Origin: Escherichia coli
GTDB lineage: Bacteria; Pseudomonadota; Gammaproteobacteria; Enterobacterales; Enterobacteriaceae
NCBI RefSeq assembly: GCF_001677475.2
Contig: NZ_CP015229.1
DNA: 64,000 bases
Strand: one strand, 5' to 3'
Made by a program: the position numbers and the translations under genes
Shown: positions 11,179-60,117 of the stretch, in pieces
Layout: each line of letters opens with the position of its first letter
Position numbering within the stretch: position 1 is the stretch's first letter
The notes under the pieces: model-generated
Databases searched by the model: none
The model's input: the letters and a program-made list of their open reading frames with translations, nothing else
Told to the model about the DNA's origin: nothing

Positions 11179-11228
11179 ACAAAAACCATCATTAAATAAT
11201 TTATTAATTTAAAAGGACTCATATCATT

Positions 11229-11681
11229 ATGACGGAGTATTATCTCAATGAAACTGTTGTAAGTTTTTCCGGGAATATTATTCAGGACAGTACTATTAAT
11301 ATGCTTCGCCTCAGCGATCCCGACGCTGCACTCATTATCAGCCGGGGCCAGATGCAGGAAGGAGACGAATTAGCCTCCCAGATTGAACAGCAAATGAAAA
11401 AACTGGAGAAACAGGTAAAGGATCTTCACTACACGCCCGTTCAGGTAACACGGGTGGGGATTAATGACGGTGAAGAAGGACTGGAAATACAGAGCCAGTT
11501 TCTCCGGGGTAACGAGCAGGTGTACCAGTGTCAGGTGGCATTTGTATTGCCGGGTGAGCGGGTCATGATGGCCTTCACCTACGCCCGAACCACACCGCTG
11601 ACCCCGGCAGATATGACGCGCTGGGCTGAAATTAAAAAGAATCTGCGCTTCAGGATGCGGCAGGAAGCCGGGACGAATTAA
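11229..11681 (+). CDS. DUF1795/Eag-family chaperone for prePAAR effectors
   Basis: 150-aa ORF between vgrG and the prePAAR Rhs gene; size and position typical of Eag/EagR chaperones; sequence-level family call not verified. Confidence 0.6.
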   Translation: MTEYYLNETVVSFSGNIIQDSTINMLRLSDPDAALIISRGQMQEGDELASQIEQQMKKLEKQVKDLHYTPVQVTRVGINDGEEGLEIQSQFLRGNEQVYQCQVAFVLPGERVMMAFTYARTTPLTPADMTRWAEIKKNLRFRMRQEAGTN

Positions 11682-11699
11682 TCACACAGGGAACGGGAC

Positions 11700-14600: not shown

Positions 14601-16415
14601 GTGTTCACCGGGGACCGGGGCGGTGAAATCCGCCACCGGCTGGCACGTGATGCGGCGGGCCGGCTCACGGCAAAGGAGACAGCCGATGGCCATACGGAAT
14701 ACGTCCATGATGCGGCAGACCAGCTACTGGAAATCCGCCGCCGACGGTCGGATGCCGGGGAAACAGACGCACCGGAGATTATCCGTTTCAGTTACGACAG
14801 ACTGGGGCGGATGCTGACCGAGGAGACGGCGCAGGGCGTCCTGACCCATCAGTACGATGAACTCAGCAACCGGACAGCCACCACCTTTCCGGATGGCAGA
14901 ACGCAGCGTCATCTGTACTACGGCAGCGGCCATCTCCAGCAGATAAATCTGGACCGGGAGGTCATCAGCGAGTTCACACGTGACGCCCTGCACCGGGAAG
15001 TGCTCAGAAGTCAGGGGCGACTGAGCACGCGGCAGCTTTATGACCCCGCCGGGCGGCTGAAGCGCAGGGAGACATACAGCGGGATGCGCGGGGTGGTACC
15101 GGAGACGTTCACGGACCGGCAGTACAGCTACAGCGGCGAGGATGAATTGCTGAAGACGCGGCACAGCCGGCGGGGGGAAACGGATTACGTCTACGACCCC
15201 ACGGGGCGCATCACGGCGTGCCGCTCGGAGGATGAGGGGTATCTGGCGAGCTGGCAGTACGACGCGGCGGGAAACCTGCTGGGGAGGCGCGCGGGGGAAA
15301 GGGCCACGGCAGAAAACAGCGTGGTGCCGTTCAACCGGCTGATGTCTTACCGTGGTGTGCACTACCGTTATGACGAATTTGGCCGGACGGTGGAAAAGGA
15401 GGGCCGGAGCGGCACGCAGAGTTACCGTTATGATGCGGAACACCGGATGGTGGAAGTGACGACAGCGCGGGGGACATACCGGTATGTGTACGATGCGCTG
15501 GGGAGGCGGACGGAAAAACAGCACATCAGCCCTGACGGTAAAGCGTACAACCGGACGACATTTTTATGGGACGGAATGCGGCTGGCGCAGGAGAGCAGGC
15601 CGGAGGGAATAAGCAGCCTGTATATCTACAGCGACCCGGGGAGTTATGAACCGCTGGCGCGGGTGGATAAGGCGGGCAAAGAGGGCCCGAACCGGATACT
15701 GTATTTTCACACGGATGTGAACGGTGCGCCGGAAGAGATGACGGACAGTGACGGGAAAATCGTGTGGGAGACGGGGTATCAGGTCTGGGGTAACACGATA
15801 CAGGAGAAGGACCACGGCGGGGTGGAGCAGAACCTGCGCTACCAGGGACAGTACCTCGACAGGGAAACGGGGCTGCACTACAATCTGCACAGGTACTATG
15901 ATCCGGATGTCGGGCGGTTCATGGTAACGGACCCGATAGGGCTGGCGGGGGGGCTGAATCTTTATACTTATGCGCCTAATCCAGTAAGCTGGATAGATCC
16001 CCTTGGTTTAAGTTGTTACTTTAATTCTAAGTCTAATCGCTGGCATGACAGGCAGACAGGTCGTTTTACAAAACGACCAACAGATCCTTCAGAATTAGTT
16101 CATAATGGCCGAATTGACAAGGCTGATATAGATGTTTGGGCTAGTCAAGGAGGGATTCCAAATACATGGGGGCATGATCCGTTAAAATTCCCCAGTGGTG
16201 GTTTTAAATATGATGCTGGTAATTATACTGTTCATGGTCATGGTGCTAATCCATCTGCGGCAGCTAAATTTCCTAATTCTAATGCGGCAAATGGGCCGAC
16301 AGCGAGCATGAAAAATACTTCAACAGGTGAAGTGTTTAGAACCGATGGAACTTGGGGGACATTCAAATCAGATGCCAATGGTGCTCATATCCCCCTTGAT
16401 GGCTCACCTTATTGA
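11700..16415 (+). CDS. Rhs-family T6SS effector with N-terminal prePAAR motif, transmembrane segments, PAAR region, YD-repeat shell and variable C-terminal toxin domain
   Basis: 1571 aa; AARQGDALLH matches the prePAAR AARxxDxxxH motif; hydrophobic stretches follow; two ...PAAR... segments; numerous YD repeats; DPIGL...DPLGLS demarcation then low-GC 134-aa tail. Confidence 0.9.
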   Translation: MEEAFWAARQGDALLHTSFMADVLGAVVEVAATALVDVLVVGTMAALGGVEVATLGCSTILAIGIATAVFMSYQGWNDRISRESEQLANWLFPPQIEGYILTGSGDTWINSKPAARAAATAASRQDIEAQEAQAKAEQEEAQRQEDARTFLDVAGEYLEMAGAIALAVNPVTGPVLMSRALHDQLSTEEGRSEMVDGVTHFVSELWQPTVASAAPGSTPTPDDKIDCHKHPSSLTQFLAQKKAAFLDDPLGTALNLLSPGGMLETAFQGVNAVIGSISNLFKGDDEPPAAEYIAEGARDVRINSQPAARSGARCTCEARVVNEPGNGAFVSPDVRIGGPLLVVRDIRSGRSQITLVATVALMFLRPGKMLSKIACFAASVGMGVMTQKAISALPHPVNAATGAKYLADDDDFDFSLPGHFPLDWQRVYSSRDDRTEGMFGQGWSVMYEVSLERTPGTADENCMTFVSGMGRRLDMEAVLPGSGFYSPGEGLAVRRGEQGHWLISSDDGQFFLFEADPRHPQRQRLKMLGDRNSNCLNLYYDELGRITQISGEQQRPCIRLHYELAAHPRRVTQIYQHFPEMAPLLLRRYRYDEAGDLNGVYDSTGHLLREFAYDENHCMTLHRQPGGEGYYYQWGWYEGPDDAAWRVTGHHTDSGEQYRLAWSLAARRLCVTDGLGRTRYHQWDAQNQVTAYQDEAGQVTTFRWSDEERLLLGMTDAQGGKWRYVYDRQGHITETHDPLGRVAQTQWHPVWHQPETEVDAAGNSWCCEYDERGNLLAVTDPLQQNTRYQYDRHGQVVQITDARGGNKYLQWNEDGQLMRHTDCSGSQTAWFYDERTRLIRMTDAQSHSTRYGYDDSGHLTEVILADGRTVNYQSDAAGRLVKYTSPMGRITRWQRDGQGRVRSRTDATGRRTAFGYDAYGRLVTLTNENGESYRFRHDVLDRLAEQINPDGCRQTYRYNALNAVTEVVFTGDRGGEIRHRLARDAAGRLTAKETADGHTEYVHDAADQLLEIRRRRSDAGETDAPEIIRFSYDRLGRMLTEETAQGVLTHQYDELSNRTATTFPDGRTQRHLYYGSGHLQQINLDREVISEFTRDALHREVLRSQGRLSTRQLYDPAGRLKRRETYSGMRGVVPETFTDRQYSYSGEDELLKTRHSRRGETDYVYDPTGRITACRSEDEGYLASWQYDAAGNLLGRRAGERATAENSVVPFNRLMSYRGVHYRYDEFGRTVEKEGRSGTQSYRYDAEHRMVEVTTARGTYRYVYDALGRRTEKQHISPDGKAYNRTTFLWDGMRLAQESRPEGISSLYIYSDPGSYEPLARVDKAGKEGPNRILYFHTDVNGAPEEMTDSDGKIVWETGYQVWGNTIQEKDHGGVEQNLRYQGQYLDRETGLHYNLHRYYDPDVGRFMVTDPIGLAGGLNLYTYAPNPVSWIDPLGLSCYFNSKSNRWHDRQTGRFTKRPTDPSELVHNGRIDKADIDVWASQGGIPNTWGHDPLKFPSGGFKYDAGNYTVHGHGANPSAAAKFPNSNAANGPTASMKNTSTGEVFRTDGTWGTFKSDANGAHIPLDGSPY

Positions 16416-46874: not shown

Positions 46875-48572
46875 TTAGATGGAGGTACGGCGGTAGTCGC
46901 GGTATTCGGCTTGCCAGAAATTATCGTCAATGGCTTGTTGCAAAGCTTCGGCAGACGTTTTCACCGCCACGCCTTGCTGCTGCGCCATTTTGCCAACCGC
47001 AAACGCAATTGCGCGGGAGACTTTCTGAATATCTTTTAGTTCCGGTAGTACCAGACCTTCGCCGTTCAGGACCAGCGGCGAATACTGGGCAAGCGTTTCA
47101 CTTGCCGACATCAGCATCTCATCGGTGATACGTGACGCGCCGGAAGCAATAACACCCAGCCCAATGCCCGGGAAAATAAAGGCGTTGTTACACTGGGCGA
47201 TAGGGTAGATTTTATCTTTCCATACCACTGGATTAAACGGACTGCCAGTGGCGACCAGCGCGTTACCTTCAGTCCAGGCGATAATGTCCTGAGGTGTGGC
47301 TTCCACGCGTGAAGTCGGGTTAGACAGCGGCATCACGATCGGACGCGGACAGTGTTTGTGCATCTCACGGATGATCTCTTCCGTAAACAGCCCGGTCTGT
47401 CCTGAGACGCCAATCAGAATATCTGGTTTTACATTGCGCACCACGTCCAGCAGTGACAGCACATCGCTGTCGGTATCCCAGTCACTGAGATTTTCGCGTT
47501 TCTGCACCAGTTTGGTCTGGAAAGGCAGCAGGTTCGGCATCTTGTCGGTCAGCAGGCCAAAGCGATCGACCATAAAGACTTTCTGCCGCGCCGTTTCCTC
47601 GCTTAATCCTTCACGCTGAGTCTGGGCAATGATCATTTCGGCAATGCCGCATCCCGCTGAACCTGCGCCAAGGAAGACGATTTTTTTCTCGCTTAACTGA
47701 CCACCTGCCGCGCGGCTGGCTGCGATCAGTGTGCCGACCGTTACCGCCGCGGTGCCCTGAATGTCATCGTTAAAAGAACAAATTTCATTGCGATAGCGGT
47801 TAAGTAACGGCATCGCATTTTTTTGTGCGAAGTCTTCAAACTGCAACAGCACGTCCGGCCAGCGTTGTTTCACAGCCTGGATAAATTCATCAACGAATTC
47901 ATAGTATTCGTCGTCAGTGATACGCGGATTACGCCAGCCCATATACAGCGGATCGTTAAGCAGCTGTTGGTTGTTCGTCCCGACATCCAGCACCACCGGA
48001 AGGGTATACGCCGGGCTGATGCCGCCACAGGCGGTATAGAGTGACAGTTTACCGATCGGAATGCCCATCCCGCCGATGCCCTGGTCACCAAGCCCCAGAA
48101 TACGTTCACCGTCAGTCACCACAATCACTTTAATATTATGGTTCGGCACGTTTTGCAGAATATCGTCCATATTGTGGCGGTTCTGGTAAGAGATAAACAC
48201 GCCGCGTGAACGGCGGTAGATCTCAGAAAAACGCTCACAGGCTGCGCCGACGGTTGGGGTATAAATAACAGGCATCATCTCATCAAGATGATTGTTTACC
48301 AGACGGTAGAAGAGGGTTTCGTTAGTGTCCTGGATGTTACGCAGGTAGATGTGTTTGTCGATTTCGGTTTTGAATCCCTGATACTGGATCCATGCTCGTT
48401 CCGCTTGTTCTTCGATGGTTTCGACCACTTCCGGCAGTAACCCCAGCAGGTTGAAGTTACGGCGTTCTTCCATGCTGAAGGCACTGCCTTTATTCAACAA
48501 CGGAAATTCCAGCAGTACAGGGCCAGCGTAAGGGATATAAAGCGAACGCTGTTTTTTTGTTTTTGGTTCCAT
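46875..48572 (-). CDS. maeA: NAD-dependent malic enzyme
   Basis: Start [18 protein letters not shown] (M13 of track ORF); 565 aa. Confidence 0.9.
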
Positions 48573-48728
48573 GTCACTCACTCTTTTTTGAATATCCATC
48601 CCTGGCACGCTTTTATCGTCTTTGCTTTACCGCCAGGGCGTCGGCCCCAAGTATAAAGCAGATAAAAACAAAAACACCATTGCGCAGGCAATGGTGTTTA
48701 ATCGTCATTGAGGACTGATGGTTATGAA

Positions 48729-48866
48729 TTACTTTTCAGCGGGGCGTTTTCTGCCGGTTGGGTTATTTACCACGCTGGATTTGTCACCTTCGGTAACTAT
48801 TTTGCGCTGGTTAGAAATTTTATGGTCCAGTCCAAGAATATGACGTGCCTGACGGTTCGATTTCAT
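48729..48866 (-). CDS. sra: Stationary-phase ribosome-associated protein Sra (RpsV)
   Basis: Hand-translated minus strand gives [45 protein letters not shown] (45 aa) with AGGAG RBS; below the ORF-track length cutoff; coordinates +/- 1. Confidence 0.75.
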
Positions 48867-48967
48867 TTTAACTCCTCAATCCTGTTGCTAGTTTTAAGGA
48901 CAACATCGCCGTAGCGAAGAAACACGTGCTAAACCCCTAAATTAGGTTGCCGATCAAGCATAGCACC

Positions 48968-49183
48968 TTAAAGCGTAGGGTGCTGGCCACTGACCACATA
49001 ATTGATCGTTTGCTGGTAGATATCACTGAGGATGTCGTTATCAGAAGCTTCCACCCATTTGGTCAGCTCCATGAGAATGTCATCTTCAGTGACAACACCG
49101 TGCTCTGCCCGAAGGCCTTGCTCAATGGCATTAACCAGAGCGGGTTCTGCTGTTGAATTTTCTGCCTGATAATAAGTAAACAT
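48968..49183 (-). CDS. bdm: Biofilm-dependent modulation protein Bdm
   Basis: Start MFTYYQAENSTAEPALVNAIEQG (M22 of track ORF 48968..49246). Confidence 0.8.
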   Translation of the reverse strand: MFTYYQAENSTAEPALVNAIEQGLRAEHGVVTEDDILMELTKWVEASDNDILSDIYQQTINYVVSGQHPTL

Positions 49184-49469
49184 AGTGATTCTCCGTGTCT
49201 GTGTATTTATGGTGTCTGCTACGGATCGCAGATTTATAAAGCACATTCAGCATGGCAAATATTTGCCGCTTCGTTGTTAAGATTAGTCCTGGTTGATGAG
49301 TTTTATATTTTAACACTATGATATTGATAGGGATTGTTATTGGTGTGAATCGATTAATATTGATACAATATCTTTTGAGTCATATATTTCCTGTTATCTA
49401 TTGTGGGAATTTAATTTAAGTACAGAGATAATGTTTTCGCCGGATTTCATTCGGAATATCCTGCTTATC

Positions 49470-49500
49470 CTCGTGCTGTTTCTCACGTAGTCTATAATTT
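49470..49500 (+). promoter_or_regulatory. Candidate osmC promoter -10 region
   Basis: Perfect TATAAT hexamer about 30 bp upstream of osmC ATG; no convincing -35 (consistent with sigma-S type promoters). Confidence 0.3.
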
Positions 49501-49527
49501 CCTTTTTAAGCCCACAGGAGAGCAACA

Positions 49528-49956
49528 ATGACAATCCATAAGAAAGGTCAGGCACACTGGGAAGGCGATATCAAACGCGGGAAGGGAACAGTATCCACCG
49601 AGAGCGGCGTGCTGAACCAACAGCCGTATGGATTTAACACGCGTTTTGAAGGCGAAAAAGGAACCAACCCTGAAGAACTGATTGGCGCAGCGCATGCCGC
49701 ATGTTTCTCAATGGCGCTTTCATTAATGCTGGGGGAAGCGGGATTCACGCCAACATCGATTGATACCACCGCCGATGTGTCGCTGGATAAAGTGGATGCC
49801 GGTTTTGCGATTACGAAAATCGCACTGAAGAGTGAAGTTGCGGTGCCGGGTATTGATGCCTCTACCTTTGACGGCATCATCCAGAAAGCAAAAGCAGGAT
49901 GTCCGGTTTCACAGGTACTGAAAGCGGAAATTACGCTGGTATTAGACGTCAACTAG
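49528..49956 (+). CDS. osmC: Osmotically inducible peroxiredoxin OsmC
   Basis: 142 aa; OsmC/Ohr family sequence. Confidence 0.9.
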   Translation: MTIHKKGQAHWEGDIKRGKGTVSTESGVLNQQPYGFNTRFEGEKGTNPEELIGAAHAACFSMALSLMLGEAGFTPTSIDTTADVSLDKVDAGFAITKIALKSEVAVPGIDASTFDGIIQKAKAGCPVSQVLKAEITLVLDVN

Positions 49957-50004
49957 TTTTGCCGACTCGCGCCAACTATACTGGCCGCACCCTTCAGGGC
50001 GACA

Positions 50005-50760
50005 TCAAGTCGCGCTTGTTACTGCCTTCGCTGTCTTTTTCCTGTAGCTTTCCCCTTTCAGTTCGAACATATATCCGTGATGGATCAGCCTGTCTGCCGC
50101 AGCCACCGCCATAGTCTCATCCACGAAGATGCTGCCCCACATGCTGAACGGATGGTTACTGGTTATCACCAGGCTCCCACGTTCATAGCGATGCGCTATT
50201 AACTCGAACAGCACACCCGTTTCGGCACTATCGCGTTTGACATAGCCAAGATCATCCACCACTATCACCCGGTAGCGATCCAGTTTCAGTAGCAGCTCAT
50301 TCAGTTTCAACTGAGCTCTGGCTTTACGTAGTTCCTGCAACAGCTCTCCTGCGCTGTAGAACCGGGCCCGGTAGCCCTGACCTACTACGCCATCCACGAT
50401 CGCTGCCGCCAGATGGCTTTTCCCCAACCCGCTGGCTCCGAACAGCAGAACGTTTTCTCCTGCATCAACCCAGTCTGTCGTTTCACAGAGTTGCCGGAAC
50501 TGAGCTCCATTCAGTTCCGGCACCTGACTGAAGTCGTATTCGCTCAGCGTTTTGGCAACTGGCAACCGGGCCTCCTTTTTATAACGACGCAGTTTTTCAC
50601 TCTCGCGCCACAGGAGTTCTTCATTGCATAGCGTCAGAAGATAGCGCGATGGTGTCCAGCCTTCTGCCAGCGCTCGTTTTTCCAGAGCGTGCCATTCAGC
50701 TCCAACTCGTGTCAGGCGTAGTTTACGCAGGCTATGTTCAAGGTGATGGATATTGCTCAC
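50005..50760 (-). CDS. istB: IS21-family helper ATPase IstB
   Basis: 251 aa; Walker A GASGLGKSHLA and Walker B VIVVDDLGY. Confidence 0.85.
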   Translation of the reverse strand: MSNIHHLEHSLRKLRLTRVGAEWHALEKRALAEGWTPSRYLLTLCNEELLWRESEKLRRYKKEARLPVAKTLSEYDFSQVPELNGAQFRQLCETTDWVDAGENVLLFGASGLGKSHLAAAIVDGVVGQGYRARFYSAGELLQELRKARAQLKLNELLLKLDRYRVIVVDDLGYVKRDSAETGVLFELIAHRYERGSLVITSNHPFSMWGSIFVDETMAVAAADRLIHHGYMFELKGESYRKKTAKAVTSAT

Positions 50761-52256
50761 TGCGAACCTCCCTTGCCACGCAGTAGTTGCTCATAACTGC
50801 TCAGGTTATGCTGTATCACATTGACTACCGGCAACGCCTTTTCTTTTATACCCAGGAAGCGCATCAGCCGGTGCAGATCCACGTTTCCCGGGGTATTCAG
50901 CATCTGCTCCATACCTTTTGCCACGACTGAGATATCGTCGTATCCTGCAGCCAGTTTCAGGGCATGTACCATCAGCCTTCCTGCCATATCGGGCTCCAGA
51001 TGATTACATAAGCGACGCCACAGCCTCCGCCATTCATCGTCCGGCAGGATGTCATTTCTCAGCGTTGCATGGCAGAACGCACCGGGCTTTTTTGCCAGAC
51101 TGTCGATCACATGTCGGAAGTCGATACGACGGGCCCGCGTCTTCCCTTTTTCTGGTCTGACGCGAGGGCAGCTCATGACCTCGCTGCTGCCAACGTAACA
51201 GCTCAGACGATCGTCCCATAACCTGACCCGTAACAGTTGACCTACAAGCCGGGAAGGTACGCTGTAGACGACGTGCTTCACATTGATGGTACTGCTGCGA
51301 CTAACCCTCACAGTCAGCTCATCATAGTCAGCACTGCGACGAAGCGGCAGCGGTTTCAGATGAAGACGTTCTTCCTTGACCAGATCCTGATTGTTACGGT
51401 TGTGCCGCATAACCTGCTGAGTGATGAAGGCCTGATATTCTTCTATGGTGCTGAAGTCGTTACTGCCCCGCAGTATCAGCGCCTGACAGATACGCCTTTT
51501 CAGATGTCCGTGGGCACTTTCAACCGAGCCATTTTCGTGGCCCCGACCGGCATTATTGTGTACGCCCTGCATTCCGTAGTGCTGACAGAGAGTAGCATAA
51601 CGCTCAGTCAGCTCGCGGCGTCCATCTTCGCCCTGTTGTTTCCATGCTGCCCTCAGGCTGTCCGTTTTATGTTCTACCGGCACTCCGCCCAGTTGTCCGA
51701 GGGCTTCCTGCAGGCCTTCAGCCAGAGCAGAGAAGCTCTCACCACCCAGAACAACCCGCATCCAGCTCCAGTGGCTCCATTCCAGACGGAAGTGATACAA
51801 CTTATGCGCCAACAACTTACCGGCGATGGTGACAACTACACCTTTCAGTTCAGTAAAGTCCGACAGGCCTCGCAGGCCGGGCTGATGTTGCTGGCGGAAC
51901 ATGACCTCCTGCTCTGTACCATACTGTAGTTTCCATTCGCGAACCCGCCGTTGCATTGTTCTTCGAAGGCTGTTGGGGTACTGGCCGGGATATTTATCCT
52001 GTAGCATCTCCAGTAGAGTTGTTGGTGTCAGAGCCGGCCTCTCTTTCAACAGAGGAACAAGCATGCTGTCCCACACAGCTTCCAGAGGATCTTTGCGTGT
52101 GCGCCAGTGCCGAACACTGTTTTTTGCCCACTCTCCTTTTTCGATCCGACGACCAGAACGGACTGAGATACCAGCCTTCATGGCCGAGATATGCTGAGTT
52201 ATACCTTTCTTACGCTGAGTCATATAGTAACTGACCTGAGAAGTATTGAGCGTCAC
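50757..52256 (-). CDS. istA: IS21-family transposase IstA
   Basis: 499 aa; N-terminal HTH, DDE-type core; 4-bp overlap with istB. Confidence 0.85.
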   Translation of the reverse strand: MTLNTSQVSYYMTQRKKGITQHISAMKAGISVRSGRRIEKGEWAKNSVRHWRTRKDPLEAVWDSMLVPLLKERPALTPTTLLEMLQDKYPGQYPNSLRRTMQRRVREWKLQYGTEQEVMFRQQHQPGLRGLSDFTELKGVVVTIAGKLLAHKLYHFRLEWSHWSWMRVVLGGESFSALAEGLQEALGQLGGVPVEHKTDSLRAAWKQQGEDGRRELTERYATLCQHYGMQGVHNNAGRGHENGSVESAHGHLKRRICQALILRGSNDFSTIEEYQAFITQQVMRHNRNNQDLVKEERLHLKPLPLRRSADYDELTVRVSRSSTINVKHVVYSVPSRLVGQLLRVRLWDDRLSCYVGSSEVMSCPRVRPEKGKTRARRIDFRHVIDSLAKKPGAFCHATLRNDILPDDEWRRLWRRLCNHLEPDMAGRLMVHALKLAAGYDDISVVAKGMEQMLNTPGNVDLHRLMRFLGIKEKALPVVNVIQHNLSSYEQLLRGKGGSQ

Positions 52257-52380
52257 GCCATTTCCTGTTGGATCATGTAAATGACACTCAGGTTACAAAA
52301 CCGGCCAGAATAATCGGCGCCAGGCGGACTGAGTTATTGTCGTCTCATACGCTGGATTACCAGTTGAAATCGTAAAGCGT

Positions 52381-52404
52381 TGCCGGATGACGCGTCATCC
52401 GGCG
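52381..52404. repeat. Perfect palindrome GCCGGATGACGCGTCATCCGGC (REP-like / terminator hairpin)
   Basis: Read directly; lies just 3' of the dehydrogenase gene on the minus strand. Confidence 0.4.
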
Positions 52405-52409
52405 AACAC

Positions 52410-53180
52410 TTACTGCGCTACCCAACCGCCATCCATATTCCACGCCACCCCACGCACTTGTGCTGCCGCATCCGAACAGAGAAACAGCGCCAGTTCACCC
52501 AGTTGTTGCGGAGTCACAAATTCACGAGAAGGCTGTTTTTCTGCCAGTAAGGCGTCACGCGCGCTTTCCGCATCTTCGCCTTGCGCAATGCGCTTATCAA
52601 TCTGCTGTTGTACCAGCGGCGTCAGCACCCAGCCAGGGCAGAGCGCGTTGCAGGTAATACCCGTCTGCGCAGTTTCCAGAGCAATGGTCTTTGTGAGTCC
52701 CACCACGCCATGTTTTGCCGCAACATAAGCTGATTTGTCTTTCGACGCTACCAGCCCATGCACAGAGGCAATGTTAATGATCCGACCCCAGTTACGAGTG
52801 CGCATTTCTGGCAGTGCCAGACGCGTGGTGTGAAAGACAGAAGAGAGATTGATGGCGATAATGGCGTTCCATTTTTCTACAGGGAAAGATTCAACCGGGG
52901 AGACATACTGGATCCCGGCGTTATTCACCAGAATGTCCACACCGCCAAATTCCCGCCGTGCGTAGGCCATCATGTTGATAATTTGCGATTCATCGCTGAG
53001 GTCTGCCTCATGATAGCCAGGCGTTTTACCCATACGAGAAACCGCATTGATTGCCGCGTCAACATCACCGAAGCCGTTGAGGATCACTTGCGCGCCAGCG
53101 TTTGCCAGTGTCTGAGCAATACCGAGTCCGATACCGCTGGTGGACCCCGTCACCAGCGCAGTTTTACCTTGTAAATTCAT
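52410..53180 (-). CDS. Short-chain dehydrogenase/reductase, 3-hydroxybutyrate dehydrogenase-like
   Basis: 256 aa; TGSTSGIG cofactor motif and YxxxK catalytic motif. Confidence 0.75.
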   Translation of the reverse strand: MNLQGKTALVTGSTSGIGLGIAQTLANAGAQVILNGFGDVDAAINAVSRMGKTPGYHEADLSDESQIINMMAYARREFGGVDILVNNAGIQYVSPVESFPVEKWNAIIAINLSSVFHTTRLALPEMRTRNWGRIINIASVHGLVASKDKSAYVAAKHGVVGLTKTIALETAQTGITCNALCPGWVLTPLVQQQIDKRIAQGEDAESARDALLAEKQPSREFVTPQQLGELALFLCSDAAAQVRGVAWNMDGGWVAQ

Positions 53181-53191
53181 GATGATTTTCC

Positions 53192-54583
53192 TTAGACAAT
53201 GCCGGTGGTGTAGTACACGCCGATGATAAACAGCACGGCCAGACTTTTAATGATCGTAATTGCGAAGATGCCGCCGTAAGCCTGACGGTGACTCAGCCCA
53301 GTAATTGCCAGCAGGGTGATCACAGCGCCGTTATGGGGCAATGTATCCATGCCGCCACTGGCCATAGATGCCACGCGGTGAAAAACTTCCAGTGGAATAT
53401 TGGCAGCGTGCGCAGCGGCAATAAAAGTGTCGGACATAGCCGCAAGAGCAATACTCATCCCGCCGGACGCTGAACCGGTAATTCCGGCAAGTGTGGTGAT
53501 GCTGATGGCTTCGTTGAGTAATGGATCAGGAATGGCGGCCAGCGCCTTTGAGAGCACCAGAAAACCGGGTAGGGCGGCGATAACCGCACCGAAGCCATAT
53601 TCTGAGGCGGTGTTCATCGCAGCCAGAATTGCGCCGCCTACCGCTGTACGGCTTCCTTCTGCCAGTCTTCCATGAATATTGCGATATCCAAAAATCACTA
53701 CCAGCAAAATTCCGGCAATGAGCGCAGCTTCGACGGCCCAGATTGCGGTGATTTTGGCGACATCTGTGGTAATCGGGGCGGTAAGTCCCGGCAACTCCAG
53801 TTGGTGGCTCGCACCGTACCAAACAGGGATCCACCAGGTAAACAACAAGTTCAACAGCCCCACCAGAATCAATGGTGAAATCGCAATGAGTGGGTTCGGT
53901 AAATTGATGTTATCTGGTGTTTCAGGTTCATTAAGTAACTCTGTGCCGTAACCTTCATTTTTTGCCTGCGCTTTACGACGCTGCCGCTCCAGATAGATAA
54001 GCCCGACGGCAATGATAAACAGTGAACCAATAAGCCCCAGCCACGGCGCGGCCCAGGCGTTGGTGCCAAAGAAACTGGTAGGAATAATGTTCTGAATTTG
54101 TGGCGTGCCGGGCAGAGCGTCCATAGTAAAAGAGAATGCTCCCAGGGCCACCGTTGCCGGTATAAGTCGTTTTGGGATGTTACTCTGGCGGAACAGTTCA
54201 GCCGCGAACGGATAAACGGCAAATGCCACCACAAACAGCGACACTCCGCCATAGGTGAGTAATGCACATACCAGCACAATCACCGGAATCGCATGCCGCC
54301 GGCCGAGAATGTTGATTGCAGCAGCGACAATCGAACGAGAAAATCCTGAAAGTTCAATCAGTTTTCCGAACACGGCCCCGAGCAGAAACACCGGGAAGTA
54401 CAATTTCACGAAGCCGACCATTTTTTCCATGAACAGGCCGGTAAATGCTGGGCCAACGGCCCCCGGATCGGTGACAAGAACAGCGCCTAATGCTGCGATG
54501 GGGGCAAAAAGGATAACGCTGTATCCGCGATAGGCTGCCAGCATTAGCAGCCCAAGCGCGGCAAGGGCGATTAATACACTCAT
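53192..54583 (-). CDS. GntP-family permease (hydroxy-acid/H+ symporter type)
   Basis: 463 aa polytopic membrane protein with GntP-like sequence. Confidence 0.75.
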   Translation of the reverse strand: MSVLIALAALGLLMLAAYRGYSVILFAPIAALGAVLVTDPGAVGPAFTGLFMEKMVGFVKLYFPVFLLGAVFGKLIELSGFSRSIVAAAINILGRRHAIPVIVLVCALLTYGGVSLFVVAFAVYPFAAELFRQSNIPKRLIPATVALGAFSFTMDALPGTPQIQNIIPTSFFGTNAWAAPWLGLIGSLFIIAVGLIYLERQRRKAQAKNEGYGTELLNEPETPDNINLPNPLIAISPLILVGLLNLLFTWWIPVWYGASHQLELPGLTAPITTDVAKITAIWAVEAALIAGILLVVIFGYRNIHGRLAEGSRTAVGGAILAAMNTASEYGFGAVIAALPGFLVLSKALAAIPDPLLNEAISITTLAGITGSASGGMSIALAAMSDTFIAAAHAANIPLEVFHRVASMASGGMDTLPHNGAVITLLAITGLSHRQAYGGIFAITIIKSLAVLFIIGVYYTTGIV

Positions 54584-54628
54584 CGGGACTCCTCAATATC
54601 GTTGTTATAGTGGGTACAGCGAGAGAAG

Positions 54629-55552
54629 TTATGGTTTAAGGGCGAAGCGAAGTTGATGTTCCCGACGCTGCTGGATGTACTGCTTCCGCGATTCATCCCA
54701 GCAGTAAAATCCCTGACCGCTACGTACGCCGATGTCTCCACGTTCCACTTTTTCGGCAACTAATGACATCATGTCGCTGCCAGTCGCTAGTTCAGGGAGC
54801 AGATGGCGACAAATATCCTGCACCGTCGAAAGTCCGGTCATGTCGGCGGCCTCCAGCGGGCCGACCATGGCATAACGTCGCCCAAGCGAGGCGCGCATCA
54901 CCTGATCCACCACTTCTGCACTGGCGATGCCGCTTTTTACGATATGCAGGGCTTCACGCAACAGTGCAAATTGCAGACGGTTGCCGACAAATCCTGGCGC
55001 AGCGCGATCCAGCAACACTGCTTCCAGTTGCAGTGACACAAGCAAGTGTTGCAGCCAGTGCAAATGCTTTGGCTCGGTAACGCTGCCGGGGATAATCTCC
55101 ACAAGTGGAATGAAGTGCGGCGGATGCCAGAAATGGGCGATCAGCAGTCGTTGCGGGTAGCGCATCTTCGCGGCCAGATCATCGGGCGGCAGACCGCTGG
55201 TATTGCTGGCGACAATGGCCTCAGGAGAAATAAGCGTTTCAAGCTCGGTATATAATGCGTGTTTTAGTTCAAGTCGCTCCGGGATCGCCTCAATCAGTAG
55301 TTGCGAGTCGGCGATGTCTGCAAGAGAAGTCGTGCCGTGCAGACGTTTAAGCACATTCTCTTTTTCCGGGGCAGTAAACTGTTCGCAGCTAATCAGCTCA
55401 TCAAGAATTCCGCCTGCAACTACGTGGATTTCTGCAATCCGGCTCTGCTCGGTATCGTACAGCCAGATATCATGACCAAAGCGGGCGAAATGAGTGGCAA
55501 TCCCCACGCCCATCAATCCGGCGCCCAGTACCGCAAATTGTTCAGTTTGCAT
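54629..55552 (-). CDS. 3-hydroxyacyl-CoA dehydrogenase family protein
   Basis: 307 aa; N-terminal Rossmann motif [13 protein letters not shown]. Confidence 0.7.
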
Positions 55553-56746
55553 GGTGTTCTCCTGTGGTTCTTTCCAGTGTCAGCGCCACGCCCTGACCGC
55601 CACCGACGCACAGCGTCGCCAGCCCTTTTTGCGCATTACGTCGCGCCATTTCATAAATGAGAGTGACCAGAATGCGGCAACCGGAAGCGCCAATAGGATG
55701 CCCAAGTGCGATTGCGCCGCCGTTAACATTCACTTTGTCGCAATCCCAGTTCAGTTCGTCGCCAACGGCCAGCGCCTGCGCTGCGAAAGCCTCGTTGGCT
55801 TCAATAAGATCAATATCTTCCAGCGTCCATCCGCAACGCTTAAGACATTCGCGGGAGCGGCGACCGGACCAATGCCCATAAAGGCAGGATCGACGCCAGA
55901 AACGGCATAACCAGCCACCCGAGCCAGCACAGGGAGACCAAGTTCGGCAGCTTTGCTGGCGCGCATTAACATGACTGCGGCGGCACCATCATTGATGGAA
56001 GAAGCATTTCCTGCGGTGACGCTTCCCGCCCCCGGAAGAAAGGCCGGTTTCAGTTGTGCTAGTTTTTCCAGTTGCGTCCCGGAACGTGGTTGTTCGTCGG
56101 TATTTACCCTGCGTGGTGGTTTTTTACCTTGTGGTACGCTGACCGGAGTAATTTCGTCTGCAAAGCGCCCGGCTTCCATTGCGGCAGCGGCTTTTTGCTG
56201 AGAACGTAGCGCGAATGTGTCCTGTCGCTCGCGACTGATGGCATATTTTTGCGCCAGGTTTTCTGCAGTAATGCCCATGTGGTAATCATTGAAAGCGTCC
56301 CATAGTCCGTCATGCACCACGCTGTCTTTCATGCTGGTATGCCCGAGGCGTAAACCTGCCCGTGCGCCATCAATAAAATAGGGCGCGTTACTCATGCTTT
56401 CCTGGCCACCTGCGATAATTATCTGTGCATCACCGCAACGGATCGCCTGTACGGCCTGGTGTACTGCTTTCAGACCGGAACCACATACCAGGTTGATGGT
56501 AACGGCGGGTGTATCGTGGCTTAACCCGGCTTTGAGCGCCGATTGCCGTGCCGGATTTTGTCCGCTTCCGGCAGTCAGGACCTGACCAAAAATCACTTCG
56601 TCGATCTGTTCTGCTGCAAGTGCTGTTTTCTCCAGCAATGAACGGATGGTGGCAGCGCCGAGATCAACCGCAGAAAGTGGGGCGAGAGCGCCATGAAAAC
56701 AGCCAATCGGTGTGCGCGTAGCGGCAACAATAACAACGTCCTGCAT
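55542..56746 (-). pseudogene. Acetyl-CoA acetyltransferase (thiolase) with apparent 1-nt frameshift near 55850
   Basis: Track shows N-terminal 331-codon ORF (55751..56746) and the conserved C-terminal thiolase segment [24 protein letters not shown] in a different frame (55542..55733). Confidence 0.65.
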
Positions 56747-56755
56747 GGTGATTCC

Positions 56756-57412
56756 TCAGTTGAATTGCATTTCCGGGACATGTTCCGGCACAAACAACTT
56801 ACCGGCGGTTTTGGCGATGATTTCCGCAACGCTGATTCCCGGCGCGCGCTCGCGCAGAATGAAAGCTCCGTCAGCAATTTCCAGCAGAGCAAGGTCGGTT
56901 AAGACGCGTTTGATGCATCCGGCGCCGGTCAACGGAAGGGTACAGTCAGGAAGCAGTTTGGATTCGCCGGATTTGGAGGCGTGGGTCATTACCACAATAA
57001 TATTCTCGGCACCGGCAACCAGATCCATGGCACCGCCCATGCCTTTAACCATCTTGCCGGGGATCATCCATGAGGCAATGTTGCCATTCACATCCACTTC
57101 AAATACGCCAAGTACAGTCAGATCCACATGACCGCCACGGATCATGGCGAATGATTGCGCCGAATCGAAAATTGCCGCGCCTTTCCGCGCGGTAACGGTT
57201 TGTTTACCGGCATTAATCATGTCGGCGTCCAGTTCGTCTTCCGTAGGAAATGCGCCCATTCCCAGCAAACCGTTTTCTGACTGCAACATCACATCCATCC
57301 CGTCAGGAATGTAGTTTGCCACCAGGGTCGGGATACCAATGCCGAGATTGACGTAATAGCCATCGCGCAATTCGCGGGCGACTCGCATCGCCATTTGTTC
57401 ACGGGTTAACAT
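56756..57412 (-). CDS. 3-oxoacid CoA-transferase subunit B (AtoA-like)
   Basis: 218 aa; AtoA/ScoB-like sequence. Confidence 0.8.
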   Translation of the reverse strand: MLTREQMAMRVARELRDGYYVNLGIGIPTLVANYIPDGMDVMLQSENGLLGMGAFPTEDELDADMINAGKQTVTARKGAAIFDSAQSFAMIRGGHVDLTVLGVFEVDVNGNIASWMIPGKMVKGMGGAMDLVAGAENIIVVMTHASKSGESKLLPDCTLPLTGAGCIKRVLTDLALLEIADGAFILRERAPGISVAEIIAKTAGKLFVPEHVPEMQFN

Positions 57413-57414
57413 GG

Positions 57415-58122
57415 TCAGGCTCCTTTGCGGCTAAGGGTGCGTTGTTCAATGCGTTTTTCAAATTGCCCCTGAATGACGCGATTAACAAAAATCCCCGGGG
57501 TATGGATAGCGGCAGGATCAAGTTCACCAGGTGGCACTATTTCTTCCACTTCCACCACGGTGATTTTTCCGGCAGCCGCCATCAGTGGGTTGAAGTTTTG
57601 CGCGGTATGACGATAAATCACGTTGCCGTACCAGTCGGCTTTCCAGCCTTTGACCAGGGCAAAATCACCGGTGATAGCCTGTTCCATGATGTACGGGCGA
57701 CCGTTGAATTCGCGGACTTCTTTCCCTTCGGCAACGGGAGTACCGTAACCGGTGGCAGTAAAGAACGCCGGGATACCCGCGCCGCCTGCGCGCAGTTGTT
57801 CTGCCAGGGTTCCTTGTGGTGTGAGAATCGCCTCCAGTTCGCCGTTAAGCACCTGTTTTTCAAACAAAGCATTCTCGCCAACATAAGAAGCGACGACTTT
57901 ACGGATCTGTCGGCTTTCCAGTAGTACATCCAGTCCAAAACCATCTACGCCACAGTTATTGGAAACCACCGTTAATCCGGTTACTCCACGGTGGCGAACT
58001 TCAGCAATCAGATTCTCCGGGATGCCGCACAGGCCAAAACCTCCTGCCAGAATCGTCATCTCATTGGTAAGTCCTTCAAGCGCCTCGTGATACGTAGCGA
58101 CCCGTTTATCCAACCCAGCCAT
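57415..58122 (-). CDS. 3-oxoacid CoA-transferase subunit A (AtoD-like)
   Basis: 235 aa; AtoD/ScoA-like sequence. Confidence 0.8.
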
Positions 58123-58263
58123 ACAGTTGCCCTCCAGTTGTCCTTTTCAACATCATTAAGGGCAAAAAATGATTTGTTAATTTTAAATTTGTGACTCATT
58201 CATTTGTATTATTTATCAATACAATGTTAATTAAATGTATTCAGTAGGTTAACGGGGTGCCAG

Positions 58264-59154
58264 ATGAAAATGAGCATCAAACAGTTACGCGCGTTTTTAG
58301 CGGTAGCTCACACTCTGAACTTTGCCCATGCCAGTGAACGGCTGAATATGTCGCAGCCTGCGCTAAGTCTTGCCATTAAAGGACTGGAAGATGCCTTAGG
58401 GGGCGCTTTACTGCTGCGTACTACGCGAAAAGTGACATTAACCCAGGAGGGGGAAACGCTATTGTCGATGGCACGGCCTTTGCTGGCTGACTGGGATAAC
58501 ACTGAGGAGGCCATGCGTCAGCGATTCACGCTCAGGCGGGGCAAAGTCTCGGTGGCAGCGATGCCGTCATTTGCAGCCAACGTTCTGCCTCCGGTGCTGA
58601 AAACCTTCCGCGATTGTTATTCAGGGATTAATGTCACCGTGCACGATGTGGTGAATGAGCAGGTGATCGAAATGGTGAGCGAAGGGCGTGTGGAGATGGG
58701 TATTGCCTTTGAACCTGACTATTGCGGCCATGTGCATTTTACCCCACTGGGCGTGGATCGGTTTGTCGCTATTGTTCCAGCCGATTCACGACTGGCAAAT
58801 CGGCAACGCGTGAGTTGGCGGGATTTGCTGACGCTCGATTTTATCACCCTCCAGCGACCGTCAGCCGTCAGGTTGATGCTGGAGGAGCAGTTGGCACAAA
58901 GTGGAACGCAACTGGAAGTGTCGCTGGAAAGCCATCAACTGGTTACGGTTGGGCGGCTGGTGGCAAACGGTTTGGGAGGAAGCGCTGTGCCTGCGCTGTG
59001 CCGCAGGCAGATGAGCGAACTGGGCGCAGTGTGTCTGGAACTGGATAATCCAGTGATTGAGCGACGAGTAGGCGTACTGCGTTCGTCACACCATAAGCTT
59101 TCTACTGCGGCGCAGGCGTTGATGGAAACGTTAAAAAAAACCTATGACGCATAA
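58264..59154 (+). CDS. LysR-family transcriptional regulator, divergent from the catabolic operon
   Basis: 296 aa; N-terminal HTH LRAFLAVAHTLNFAHASERLNMSQPALSLAIKGLE. Confidence 0.8.
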   Translation: MKMSIKQLRAFLAVAHTLNFAHASERLNMSQPALSLAIKGLEDALGGALLLRTTRKVTLTQEGETLLSMARPLLADWDNTEEAMRQRFTLRRGKVSVAAMPSFAANVLPPVLKTFRDCYSGINVTVHDVVNEQVIEMVSEGRVEMGIAFEPDYCGHVHFTPLGVDRFVAIVPADSRLANRQRVSWRDLLTLDFITLQRPSAVRLMLEEQLAQSGTQLEVSLESHQLVTVGRLVANGLGGSAVPALCRRQMSELGAVCLELDNPVIERRVGVLRSSHHKLSTAAQALMETLKKTYDA

Positions 59155-59190
59155 CGTTTCCGCAGACATGCAATAGCCGGATGCCGCGTC

Positions 59191-60117
59191 CTACAGCGCC
59201 CGCCAGCAACGGATCTCACGTCCGTCAGCCCGCGTCGTTAATGATTGCCGGACTTCGCATCCGCTGGTTGCAAGGGGGCAACGTTCGCGGAAAAAACAGC
59301 CTTGTGGCAACGTGCGGTTTCCTGGTAGATCCGTTTTACGTAATGCCCATTCTTCCTCCAGCGGTTTATCAATGGCGGGGAGGGAATCCAGCAATAATCG
59401 GGTGTAGGGATGTGCCGGAGCTGTCAGCACCTGTTGCGCGTCTCCTAGTTCCACAATCTGTCCGAGATACATCACCGCCACCCGATCGCTCATATGACGT
59501 ATCACCGAGACATTGTGTGAAATCAGCACATAAGTCAGCTCGCGATTTTCCTGTAGCGTTACCAGTAAATTGAGGATCTGCGCCTGCACGGAGATATCCA
59601 GCGCCGAGGTTGGTTCATCAAGCACAATCACGTCAGGCTGCGAAGAGAGTGCTCTGGCAATGGCGATACGTTGCCGCTGCCCGCCTGAGAACGCATGAGG
59701 CAAGCGGTCGAGATACTCCGGACGAATACCCACCTGCACAGCCAGCTCCTCTGCCAACGCTCGCCGCTGTTGTTCACTACTACGCTTAGCAATCCAGAGC
59801 GGTTCCGTGATGATGCGCCACACCGGTAAGCGCGGATTAAGCGAAGAGAGCGGGTCCTGAAACACCATCTGCATAATGCGTTGTGATCCTGAACGGATGT
59901 ACTGCCCGTGGCTTGGTTGCAGCATACCCATTAAAAGCTGTGCGAGGGTGCTTTTGCCGCAGCCTGACTCACCTACGATCCCTAAGGTTTCACCACGACG
60001 GATCTGTAAATCAATACCATTGATGGCATGAACATGTTCCGTAGTTTTACCAAGCCAGTTTTTTCGGGCCGGGAAATTGATATGGACGTCGCGTAACGTT
60101 AATAACGTGTCAGACAC
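59191..60117 (-). CDS. ddpF: Dipeptide ABC transporter ATP-binding protein DdpF
   Basis: GTG start after AGGAGG RBS (track ORF extends to 60171); Walker motifs. Confidence 0.85.
   Translation of the reverse strand: MSDTLLTLRDVHINFPARKNWLGKTTEHVHAINGIDLQIRRGETLGIVGESGCGKSTLAQLLMGMLQPSHGQYIRSGSQRIMQMVFQDPLSSLNPRLPVWRIITEPLWIAKRSSEQQRRALAEELAVQVGIRPEYLDRLPHAFSGGQRQRIAIARALSSQPDVIVLDEPTSALDISVQAQILNLLVTLQENRELTYVLISHNVSVIRHMSDRVAVMYLGQIVELGDAQQVLTAPAHPYTRLLLDSLPAIDKPLEEEWALRKTDLPGNRTLPQGCFFRERCPLATSGCEVRQSLTTRADGREIRCWRAL

Follow-up and report, generated by a model that had tools for sequence, protein, structure and literature searches.

A probably ancestral, putative 3-hydroxybutyrate operon between osmC and ddpF of Escherichia coli and a separate ISEc10 insertion in osmC

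We analysed a stretch of 64,000 nucleotides from Escherichia coli (NCBI RefSeq assembly GCF_001677475.2, contig NZ_CP015229.1; hereafter the window), in which about 9.2 kb of DNA separates osmC from ddpF. An initial annotation, made from the letters alone, had described this DNA as a single insertion, composed of an IS21-family element and a LysR-regulated cluster for the catabolism of short-chain keto and hydroxy acids, in a place where K-12 has the two genes side by side. Gene order was derived from a listing of the open reading frames of the window and their translations, and the breakpoints from BLAST comparisons with K-12 and with a cluster-bearing O145:H28 genome. In MG1655 osmC and ddpF are indeed adjacent, with a 55-bp spacer and no extra DNA, and all the genes that had been named (istA and istB, a short-chain dehydrogenase, a permease, a 3HCDH-family dehydrogenase, a thiolase, CoA-transferase subunits A and B and a LysR regulator) are present where they had been placed (Table 1). 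The 9.2 kb of extra DNA is also real, although it starts inside osmC, at 49940 and not at 49957. It is not one insertion, however, as it consists of two blocks, namely the insertion sequence (IS) ISEc10 with its target duplication (49940-52355) and a cluster of 6,794 bp (52397-59190), in which a lysR gene faces away from the operon scoA-scoB-thiolase-3HCDH-permease-bdh.

Table 1. Features between 49 and 60 kb of the window, with strand and basis of assignment (L001, L002 and L003 are loci used for comparison, L003 being that of strain PCN033; SDR, short-chain dehydrogenase/reductase).
Feature	Position	Strand	Basis
osmC, altered 3' end	49528-49956	+	Open reading frame, 142 aa; NCBIfam TIGR03562, 203 bits (cutoff 86)
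Target duplication, left copy CGCTGG	49934-49939	.	Comparison with uninterrupted osmC and with two other ISEc10 copies
ISEc10, IS21 family, 2,410 bp	49940-52349	-	Shared ends, inverted repeat, IstA and IstB models, RefSeq name
istB	50005-50760	-	251 aa, intact
istA	50757-52256	-	499 aa, intact
Target duplication, right copy (52350-52355), with displaced last codons and stop of osmC	52350-52375	+	Identical to the osmC 3' end of loci L001 and L002
Perfect 22-nt palindrome GCCGGATGACGCGTCATCCGGC	52382-52403	.	Repeat search; lies between convergent osmC and bdh
bdh, SDR, 256 aa	52410-53180	-	NCBIfam NF009093 and TIGR01963; PDB 5yss and 2q2q
Permease, 463 aa	53192-54583	-	RefSeq label "GntP family permease"
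3HCDH-family dehydrogenase, 307 aa	54629-55552	-	PF02737 and PF00725 on close homologues
Thiolase (acetyl-CoA C-acetyltransferase) pseudogene	55542-56746	-	Aligned with the gene of L001, which is intact (401 aa)
scoB, 3-oxoacid CoA-transferase subunit B, 218 aa	56756-57412	-	TIGR02428
scoA, 3-oxoacid CoA-transferase subunit A, 235 aa	57415-58122	-	TIGR02429
Divergent control region, 141 bp	58123-58263	.	13-sequence alignment; consensus scan
lysR, 296 aa, divergent from scoA	58264-59154	+	LysR models; Pfam domains on orthologue
Bracketing repeat, right copy GCCGGATGCCGCGTC	59176-59190	.	Abuts the ddpF stop codon
ddpF, right flank	59191-60117	-	Transferred by alignment from the RefSeq annotation of L001, L002 and L003

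The cluster is found in 231 of 5,426 complete E. coli genomes (4.3%), on the chromosome every time, with strains IAI1, E24377A, B7A, PCN033 and those of serotype O145:H28 among the carriers, and it lies between osmC and ddpF in all five copies inspected. As 230 E. coli genomes have the cluster without the IS, the two are independent events. Outside E. coli, the nearest relatives of the 3HCDH-family protein come from Citrobacter (80-82% identity), on contigs that read ddpXABCDF - lysR - scoA - scoB - thiolase - 3HCDH - permease - bdh - osmC - sra - maeA. A scan with one genome per species yielded 33 loci, and the proteins of the window were mapped onto these and onto two Citrobacter loci. Besides ~22 Citrobacter species, two divergent lineages of Escherichia (Escherichia sp. 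E1V33 and "E. coli" SCPM-O-B-8794) show the ddpF-cluster-osmC arrangement. In Raoultella, Serratia, Enterobacter and Pluralibacter the order of the seven genes is kept, at another position of the genome. Compared with C. youngae at the nucleotide level, the operon is 78% and lysR 74.6% identical, and the flanking genes 74-75% (ddpF), 77% (ddpDC), 81% (osmC) and 83% (maeA). Because this divergence matches that of the flanks, the cluster should have occupied this site for as long as the genes around it. The simplest reading is thus that the arrangement predates the split between Escherichia and Citrobacter and that K-12-type genomes carry a deletion, since in Citrobacter the cluster is both syntenic and equally diverged. 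The earlier view of K-12 as the uninserted state is not supported by this comparison, the cluster being found at this very location in related genomes, the 231 E. coli and the ~22 Citrobacter species, and with a flank-like divergence in the latter. Two minor variants were seen among the E. coli copies. That of strain BEC1-S17-ESBL-07 is decayed (the match runs from query position 1664, without bdh and part of the permease gene), and in PCN033 (locus L003, 8861-9772) lysR has an annotated length of 912 nt, 21 more than the 891 nt of the other strains, which points to an indel near its 3' end.

In the place of the cluster, K-12 has a filler of 33 bp, AGGCGCGTGAATGCCTGATGCGTTGTTAGCATCT, which is similar to a repetitive extragenic palindrome (REP) and is also present in strain 97-3250. 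Where present, the cluster is bracketed by a direct repeat matching at 14 of 15 positions, the left copy of which (GCCGGATGACGCGTC, 52382-52396) constitutes the first 15 nt of the palindrome between osmC and bdh. The position of this palindrome suggests that it serves as a bidirectional terminator for both genes. The cluster does not have the attributes of a genomic island: there is no shift in GC content (53.5%, against 53.3% in the ddp flank), the list of its open reading frames holds no integrase gene, ARAGORN detected no tRNA gene between 45000 and 64000, and the same junction is occupied in ~22 Citrobacter species. Rfam gave no match in the interval 48500-59500. A third allele was met in E. 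coli PMV-1 (locus L007, 6129-9149), in which dosP directly follows osmC and the whole ddp operon is gone; the REP-like sequence after osmC is the same as in K-12. Given this third allele, the osmC-ddpF junction is evidently prone to rearrangement.

Within Escherichia the cluster shows much less divergence than its flanks. Identity among the window, O145:H28, PCN033, IAI1 and 23CRST011 is 98.8-99.9% for the operon and 99.7-100% for lysR, against 97.3-98.3% for maeA, 95.1-98.1% for ddpF and 96.4-98.8% for ddpDC. The contrast is sharper in Escherichia sp. E1V33, whose osmC and ddpDC are 90-93% identical to those of E. coli and whose operon is 98.0-98.7% identical, and it is absent in SCPM-O-B-8794 (operon 92.4%, flanks ~88-93%). 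The operon is not intrinsically slow to evolve, because maeA is the better conserved of the two in the comparison with Citrobacter. The low diversity within the genus therefore points to the spread of a single allele of the cluster, carried from one Escherichia lineage to another by homologous recombination in the conserved flanks. The segment of the window from 25001 to 49939 (narZ ... fdnG ... maeA ... osmC) reaches a best identity of only 97.2% among the 5,426 complete genomes, so the source lineage is not represented among them; over the shorter maeA, osmC and ddp segments compared, it looks like an ordinary E. coli. A Shigella origin was rejected on the same figure of 97.2%, as a closer match to E. 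coli would be expected of a Shigella genome.

The other block is an insertion sequence at a new site. The window matches the uninterrupted osmC up to 49939 and picks it up again at 52350, which places the insertion point at codon 138. The element starts with TATTAGACG and ends with CGTCTCATA, with CGCTGG repeated on both sides, and has an imperfect terminal inverted repeat of 49 nt. IstA (NF033546, 226 bits, cutoff 160) and IstB (NF038214, 267 bits, cutoff 200) are both above their model cutoffs, istB lying immediately downstream of istA with an overlap of 4 nt (50757-50760). The ends are identical in the copies of E. coli RM8082 and E600003, each of which has a 6-bp duplication of its own (GCTGTG and TCCCGG). 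The assignment to the IS21 family thus stands, on the strength of the two proteins, the inverted repeats and the 6-bp target duplication, and ISEc10 is the name given by RefSeq. The element shares istA and istB, its ends and the length of the duplication with the known copies, and differs from them only in its site, the 3' end of osmC. Although a copy covering at least 80% of ISEc10 is present in 525 of the 5,426 complete E. coli genomes (the best 99.9% identical), none has it at this osmC site, as none covers at least 80% of the combined IS and cluster region. We conclude that ISEc10 recently jumped into the end of osmC, separately from the cluster. The protein now ends in EITLVLDVN instead of the EITLDYQLKS of K-12, VLDVN replacing the last six residues DYQLKS; by position, the element also appears to cut osmC off from its predicted terminator. 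Because bdh closes the operon and the insertion lies downstream of it, beyond the palindrome, the expression of the operon should not be altered.

Bdh is above the cutoffs of two 3-hydroxybutyrate dehydrogenase models (NF009093, 371 bits against 258; TIGR01963, 343.5 against 307) and matches PDB entries named hydroxybutyrate dehydrogenase (5yss, E 1.4e-146, ~87% identity; P. putida 2q2q, E 3.8e-116, ~72%; identities read from the alignments), and we predict it to be the D-3-hydroxybutyrate dehydrogenase (EC 1.1.1.30). ScoA (TIGR02429, 244.5 bits, cutoff 128.5) and ScoB (TIGR02428, 325.4 bits, cutoff 243.55) both pass their models. In subunit B of class I 3-oxoacid CoA-transferases the SENG motif carries the catalytic glutamate, and ScoB holds it in the segment MLQSENGLLG (motif QSENG). 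The intact orthologue of the thiolase in locus L001 reaches 502 bits with TIGR01930 (cutoff 240.55). The LysR protein is matched by 45 LysR models, none above an equivalog cutoff, and its Citrobacter orthologue has the Pfam domains HTH_1 and LysR_substrate. In the 141-bp spacer between lysR and scoA, an alignment of 13 sequences reveals blocks that Escherichia shares with genera as far as Serratia and Pluralibacter, one of which coincides with a promoter-like site facing scoA (-35 TTAACA, 58180-58175; -10 AATGAT, 58157-58152). As a consensus scan for promoters and terminators gave no higher counts than shuffled sequence, only this site in a conserved block was kept, and the spacer would hold both the operator and the promoter.

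At the family level, then, a breakdown of 3-hydroxybutyrate and acetoacetate to acetyl-CoA is well supported by the gene set, with its divergent LysR regulator and its separation from the ato operon, much as had been annotated. We infer the substrates, the direction of flux, the LysR effector and the activity of the 3HCDH-family protein. The permease would import 3-hydroxybutyrate, of which Bdh would oxidise the D form to acetoacetate and the 3HCDH-family enzyme, probably, the L form to the same product; ScoAB would turn acetoacetate into acetoacetyl-CoA, the thiolase would cleave this into two acetyl-CoA, and the LysR protein may induce the operon in response to a metabolite of the pathway.

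In the genome analysed the operon is damaged. The thiolase gene had been annotated as present, and it is, as a pseudogene with a 1-bp frameshift: a base has dropped out between 55855 and 55856 (GCT-ACC-CGC becoming GCT-CCC-GC on the coding strand) at a site that is not a homopolymer, so that the frame shifts after about residue 297 and only 331 of 401 codons stay open, down to 55751. The C-terminal segments GHPIGASG and CVGGGQG, with the catalytic histidine and cysteine, are lost in the window. Since none of the other 230 E. coli copies shows this loss, the lesion could be private to this genome or an error of assembly.

The 3HCDH-family protein is loosely annotated. Close homologues have precomputed 3HCDH_N and 3HCDH domains (PF02737 and PF00725), and S116, H140, E152 and N191 (the catalytic Ser, His, Glu and Asn) are invariant among its relatives, as are R225 and R226 down to 38% identity. 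All 19 of its NCBIfam matches are below cutoff, with no equivalog: the best is FHMPC dehydrogenase (220 bits, cutoff 500), Hbd models give 151-181 bits (cutoffs 319-427), and the best PDB match is also an FHMPC dehydrogenase, 4om8, whose substrate is not a CoA ester. Over the core of the protein (residues ~127-248), 4om8 scores 77 bits and lambda-crystallin/L-gulonate 3-dehydrogenase 68, against at most 49 for any Hbd acting on CoA esters. The motifs PPHxIPLVE, GFVxNRLQ(F/Y)A and LGxRYAxxGPLE are common to the protein and the free-acid enzymes, and one of the two arginines aligns with position 231 of rabbit L-gulonate 3-dehydrogenase, a residue that we take to bind the carboxylate of the substrate. 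L-gulonate 3-dehydrogenase also oxidises L-3-hydroxy acids. The resemblance to these enzymes (3ado, 3f3s and 4om8) thus extends to the core motifs, the catalytic residues and the arginine, but it is distant, about one-third identity as read from the alignments, and the gene context, with a CoA-transferase, a thiolase and bdh, is unlike the pathways generally known for them. In a metagenomic homologue of 49% identity the stop codon overlaps the start of a permease gene that is 67% identical to ours; the surroundings of a more distant homologue (P0249) were uninformative. The label of hydroxyacyl-CoA dehydrogenase therefore holds for fold and domains and needs revision as to the presumed substrate, as no equivalog cutoff is passed and the protein groups with free-acid dehydrogenases. 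A role in a carnitine/dehydrocarnitine pathway was also considered and rejected, the carnitine dehydrogenase models giving 112-142 bits (cutoffs 414-592) and the cluster having no beta-keto-acid cleavage enzyme.

The label of GntP permease found no support in Pfam or NCBIfam either. The protein has no true match in Pfam-A (only a spurious one to DUF3169 at E 0.03, and so none to PF02447 of the GntP family, TC 2.A.8), none in NCBIfam at E values up to 10 and none among the PDB sequences. Similarity to GntT and GntU is weak, colinear and N-terminal (pairwise E 0.004 and 7e-4), and hhalign of the permease alignment against GntT and GntU, both alignments being shallow, returned a probability of 6.7%; an AlphaFold model built on a 9-sequence alignment has a mean pLDDT (predicted local distance difference test) of 52. 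The protein is 81% identical to a Pseudomonas protein encoded beside bdh. One source labels a homologue (P0239) as "D-beta-hydroxybutyrate permease", and sources also give a GntP or COG-style label. The permease may best be described as a distinct subfamily.

The same functions can be recognised in known systems. The E. coli operon atoDAEB for acetoacetate and short-chain fatty acids, under AtoSC, likewise employs a CoA-transferase and a thiolase to convert acetoacetate into acetyl-CoA; the ato operon has no hydroxybutyrate dehydrogenase, uses the transporter AtoE and is under two-component control, and ScoA is unlike AtoD (195 bits with the AtoD-type acetate CoA-transferase model, cutoff 315, where the ScoA/PcaI model is passed). 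In Pseudomonas the same enzyme set is known from P. aeruginosa and P. putida (bdhA-PA2004 in the former; PP_3073-3075 and atoAB, PP_3122-3, in the latter), a likeness judged by function; PA1998-PA2001 of P. aeruginosa presumably encode a LysR regulator, a two-subunit CoA-transferase and atoB. A Pseudomonas locus (L045) holds all six functions on one contig (3HCDH 59%, permease 81%, bdh 75%, scoA 62%, scoB 64% and thiolase 69% identical) together with a sigma-54 activator, so the module appears to be conserved across orders under a different regulator, LysR-type in E. coli and a sigma-54 enhancer-binding protein beside bdh in this Pseudomonas. The gene order differs as well, the enterobacterial version being a single compact operon. 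In a P. aeruginosa preprint, PA2004 and BdhA are described as the route of 3-hydroxybutyrate uptake and oxidation, and the activator is called HcbR. Transposon fitness data for P. putida on 1,3-butanediol, which is used via 3-hydroxybutyrate, gave -2.5 for bdh (PP_3073), -0.9 for the permease gene (PP_3074) and -2.9 and -3.0 for the CoA-transferase subunits (PP_3122-3) (bioRxiv 10.1101/2020.07.04.188060).

The best explanation as a whole, to which we give a probability of about 0.75, builds on direct observations of gene content, boundaries, synteny, divergence, family membership, the frameshift and the anatomy of the IS. The seven genes would belong natively to the Escherichia/Citrobacter lineage, as an operon between ddpF and osmC for the breakdown of 3-hydroxybutyrate; most E. 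coli, K-12 included, would have lost it, the 33-bp REP-like filler remaining; the surviving allele would recently have passed between Escherichia lineages through the conserved flanks; and a copy of ISEc10 would later have transposed into codon 138 of osmC, leaving its 6-bp duplication and not touching the cluster. That osmC and ddpF are adjacent in K-12 and that the IS abuts the cluster could recall a single composite mobile insertion, an IS21 element with a cargo operon, into a K-12-like backbone, but the IS has a 6-bp duplication of its own and lies inside osmC, and the cluster occurs without it in 230 E. coli genomes and in Citrobacter while no other complete genome has the IS here, which makes this scenario scarcely credible. 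A composite transposon proper is ruled out, there being only one copy of the IS. It is improbable, if less so, that the cluster is an island acquired horizontally at this same site, from Citrobacter, Klebsiella or a plasmid, with the K-12 state ancestral for Escherichia. Its presence in only 4.3% of E. coli genomes and on two K. pneumoniae plasmids, its clear movement between Escherichia lineages and the flanking 15-bp direct repeats would all agree with such an origin. The divergence between Escherichia and Citrobacter is nevertheless alike for the cluster (78%) and its flanks (74-83%), the deep lineage SCPM-O-B-8794 (92.4% against ~88-93%) looks like vertical descent, integrase, tRNA and GC shift are all lacking, and two landings at an identical junction are hard to envisage.

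Several points do weigh against the ancestral operon and its assigned function. E. albertii, E. fergusonii and other species representatives are not among the 33 loci of the scan, so an ancestral origin requires several losses. The filler of K-12 does not correspond to the product of a simple crossover between the two 15-bp repeats. Two 120-kb K. pneumoniae plasmids, NZ_CP074582.1 and NZ_CP084170.1 (~9768-16383), carry all seven genes of the cluster at 73% nucleotide identity, and its transfer across genera is possible in principle. On the functional side, the damage to the thiolase could be an assembly error, as said above, the family and substrate class of the permease rest on gene context with no profile match, and literature searches brought up no paper on this cluster of E. 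coli, and so no data on growth, enzymes or expression. The lack of a permease profile, the resemblance of the 3HCDH-family enzyme to L-gulonate 3-dehydrogenase and a LysR effector predicted only as a pathway metabolite could accommodate another physiological substrate, be it acetoacetate by itself, 3-hydroxyvalerate or, with uptake through a GntP-like permease, a sugar acid like L-gulonate. This is unlikely, as Bdh clears the curated models for 3-hydroxybutyrate dehydrogenase and has characterised enzymes of this kind as its matches, the permease-bdh pair is conserved in Pseudomonas and P. putida fitness links genes so named to 3-hydroxybutyrate, and the cluster has no sugar-acid kinase, dehydratase or aldolase.

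For the 3HCDH-family protein the balance is finer. From the core similarity, we tentatively propose, at close to even odds, that it is a dehydrogenase of free L-(S)-3-hydroxybutyrate working beside the D-specific Bdh. A conceivable alternative, which we would put somewhat short of an even chance, is that the gene encodes a true (S)-3-hydroxybutyryl-CoA dehydrogenase, ScoAB first activating L-3-hydroxybutyrate or another 3-hydroxy acid. The RefSeq name (3-hydroxyacyl-CoA dehydrogenase family protein), the full-length match to Hbd structures at E ~1e-39 and the overlap of 11 nt between the stop codon of the thiolase gene and the start of the 3HCDH gene, suggestive of a coupling to chemistry at the CoA level, all favour a CoA ester as substrate; the missing equivalog match, the nature of the nearest structure (4om8), the core scores (68-77 bits with free-acid enzymes, at most 49 with Hbd), the shared motifs and arginine, and the overlap with a permease gene in the 49%-identical homologue do not. 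We also know of no class I 3-oxoacid CoA-transferase that activates 3-hydroxy acids. Were the protein to act on free L-3-hydroxybutyrate, the operon, with its unclassified and highly conserved permease, would enable Citrobacter, and those few E. coli that acquire it by recombination, to use the D and the L form of 3-hydroxybutyrate alike. Such a capacity could be of importance in inflamed tissue or the gut, and K-12 would be unusable for its study.

The locus is ordinary biology in its parts, already annotated by RefSeq: a common IS at a new site and a native, partly decayed catabolic operon of textbook type. Its interest is modest and would not surprise a specialist. It lies in the reversed polarity of a comparison centred on K-12, what looks like an island being old native DNA that the laboratory strain has lost, and in the way this DNA would now circulate in Escherichia, by homologous recombination and not on a mobile element. 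Growth on 3-hydroxybutyrate, a ketone body of the host and also the building block of polyhydroxybutyrate, is predicted for ~4% of complete E. coli genomes and for the majority of the Citrobacter species representatives recovered. Two proteins with loose annotations are open to bench tests and merit biochemistry as well, the permease without a profile and the "3-hydroxyacyl-CoA dehydrogenase", for which a free acid is the more probable substrate.

Elsewhere in the window, positions 1-8100 represent the right end of a Mu-like prophage according to PHROGs, with genes for the baseplate wedge (894-2981), for tail fibres and their assembly (2985-7135) and for a Mom-like DNA modification (7352-8089). 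Further on, 9184-16415 encodes a type VI secretion VgrG of 664 aa followed by an Rhs core protein of 1,571 aa. No complete E. coli genome covers at least 80% of positions 1-25000, and the best E. coli matches to this segment start only at 8203.

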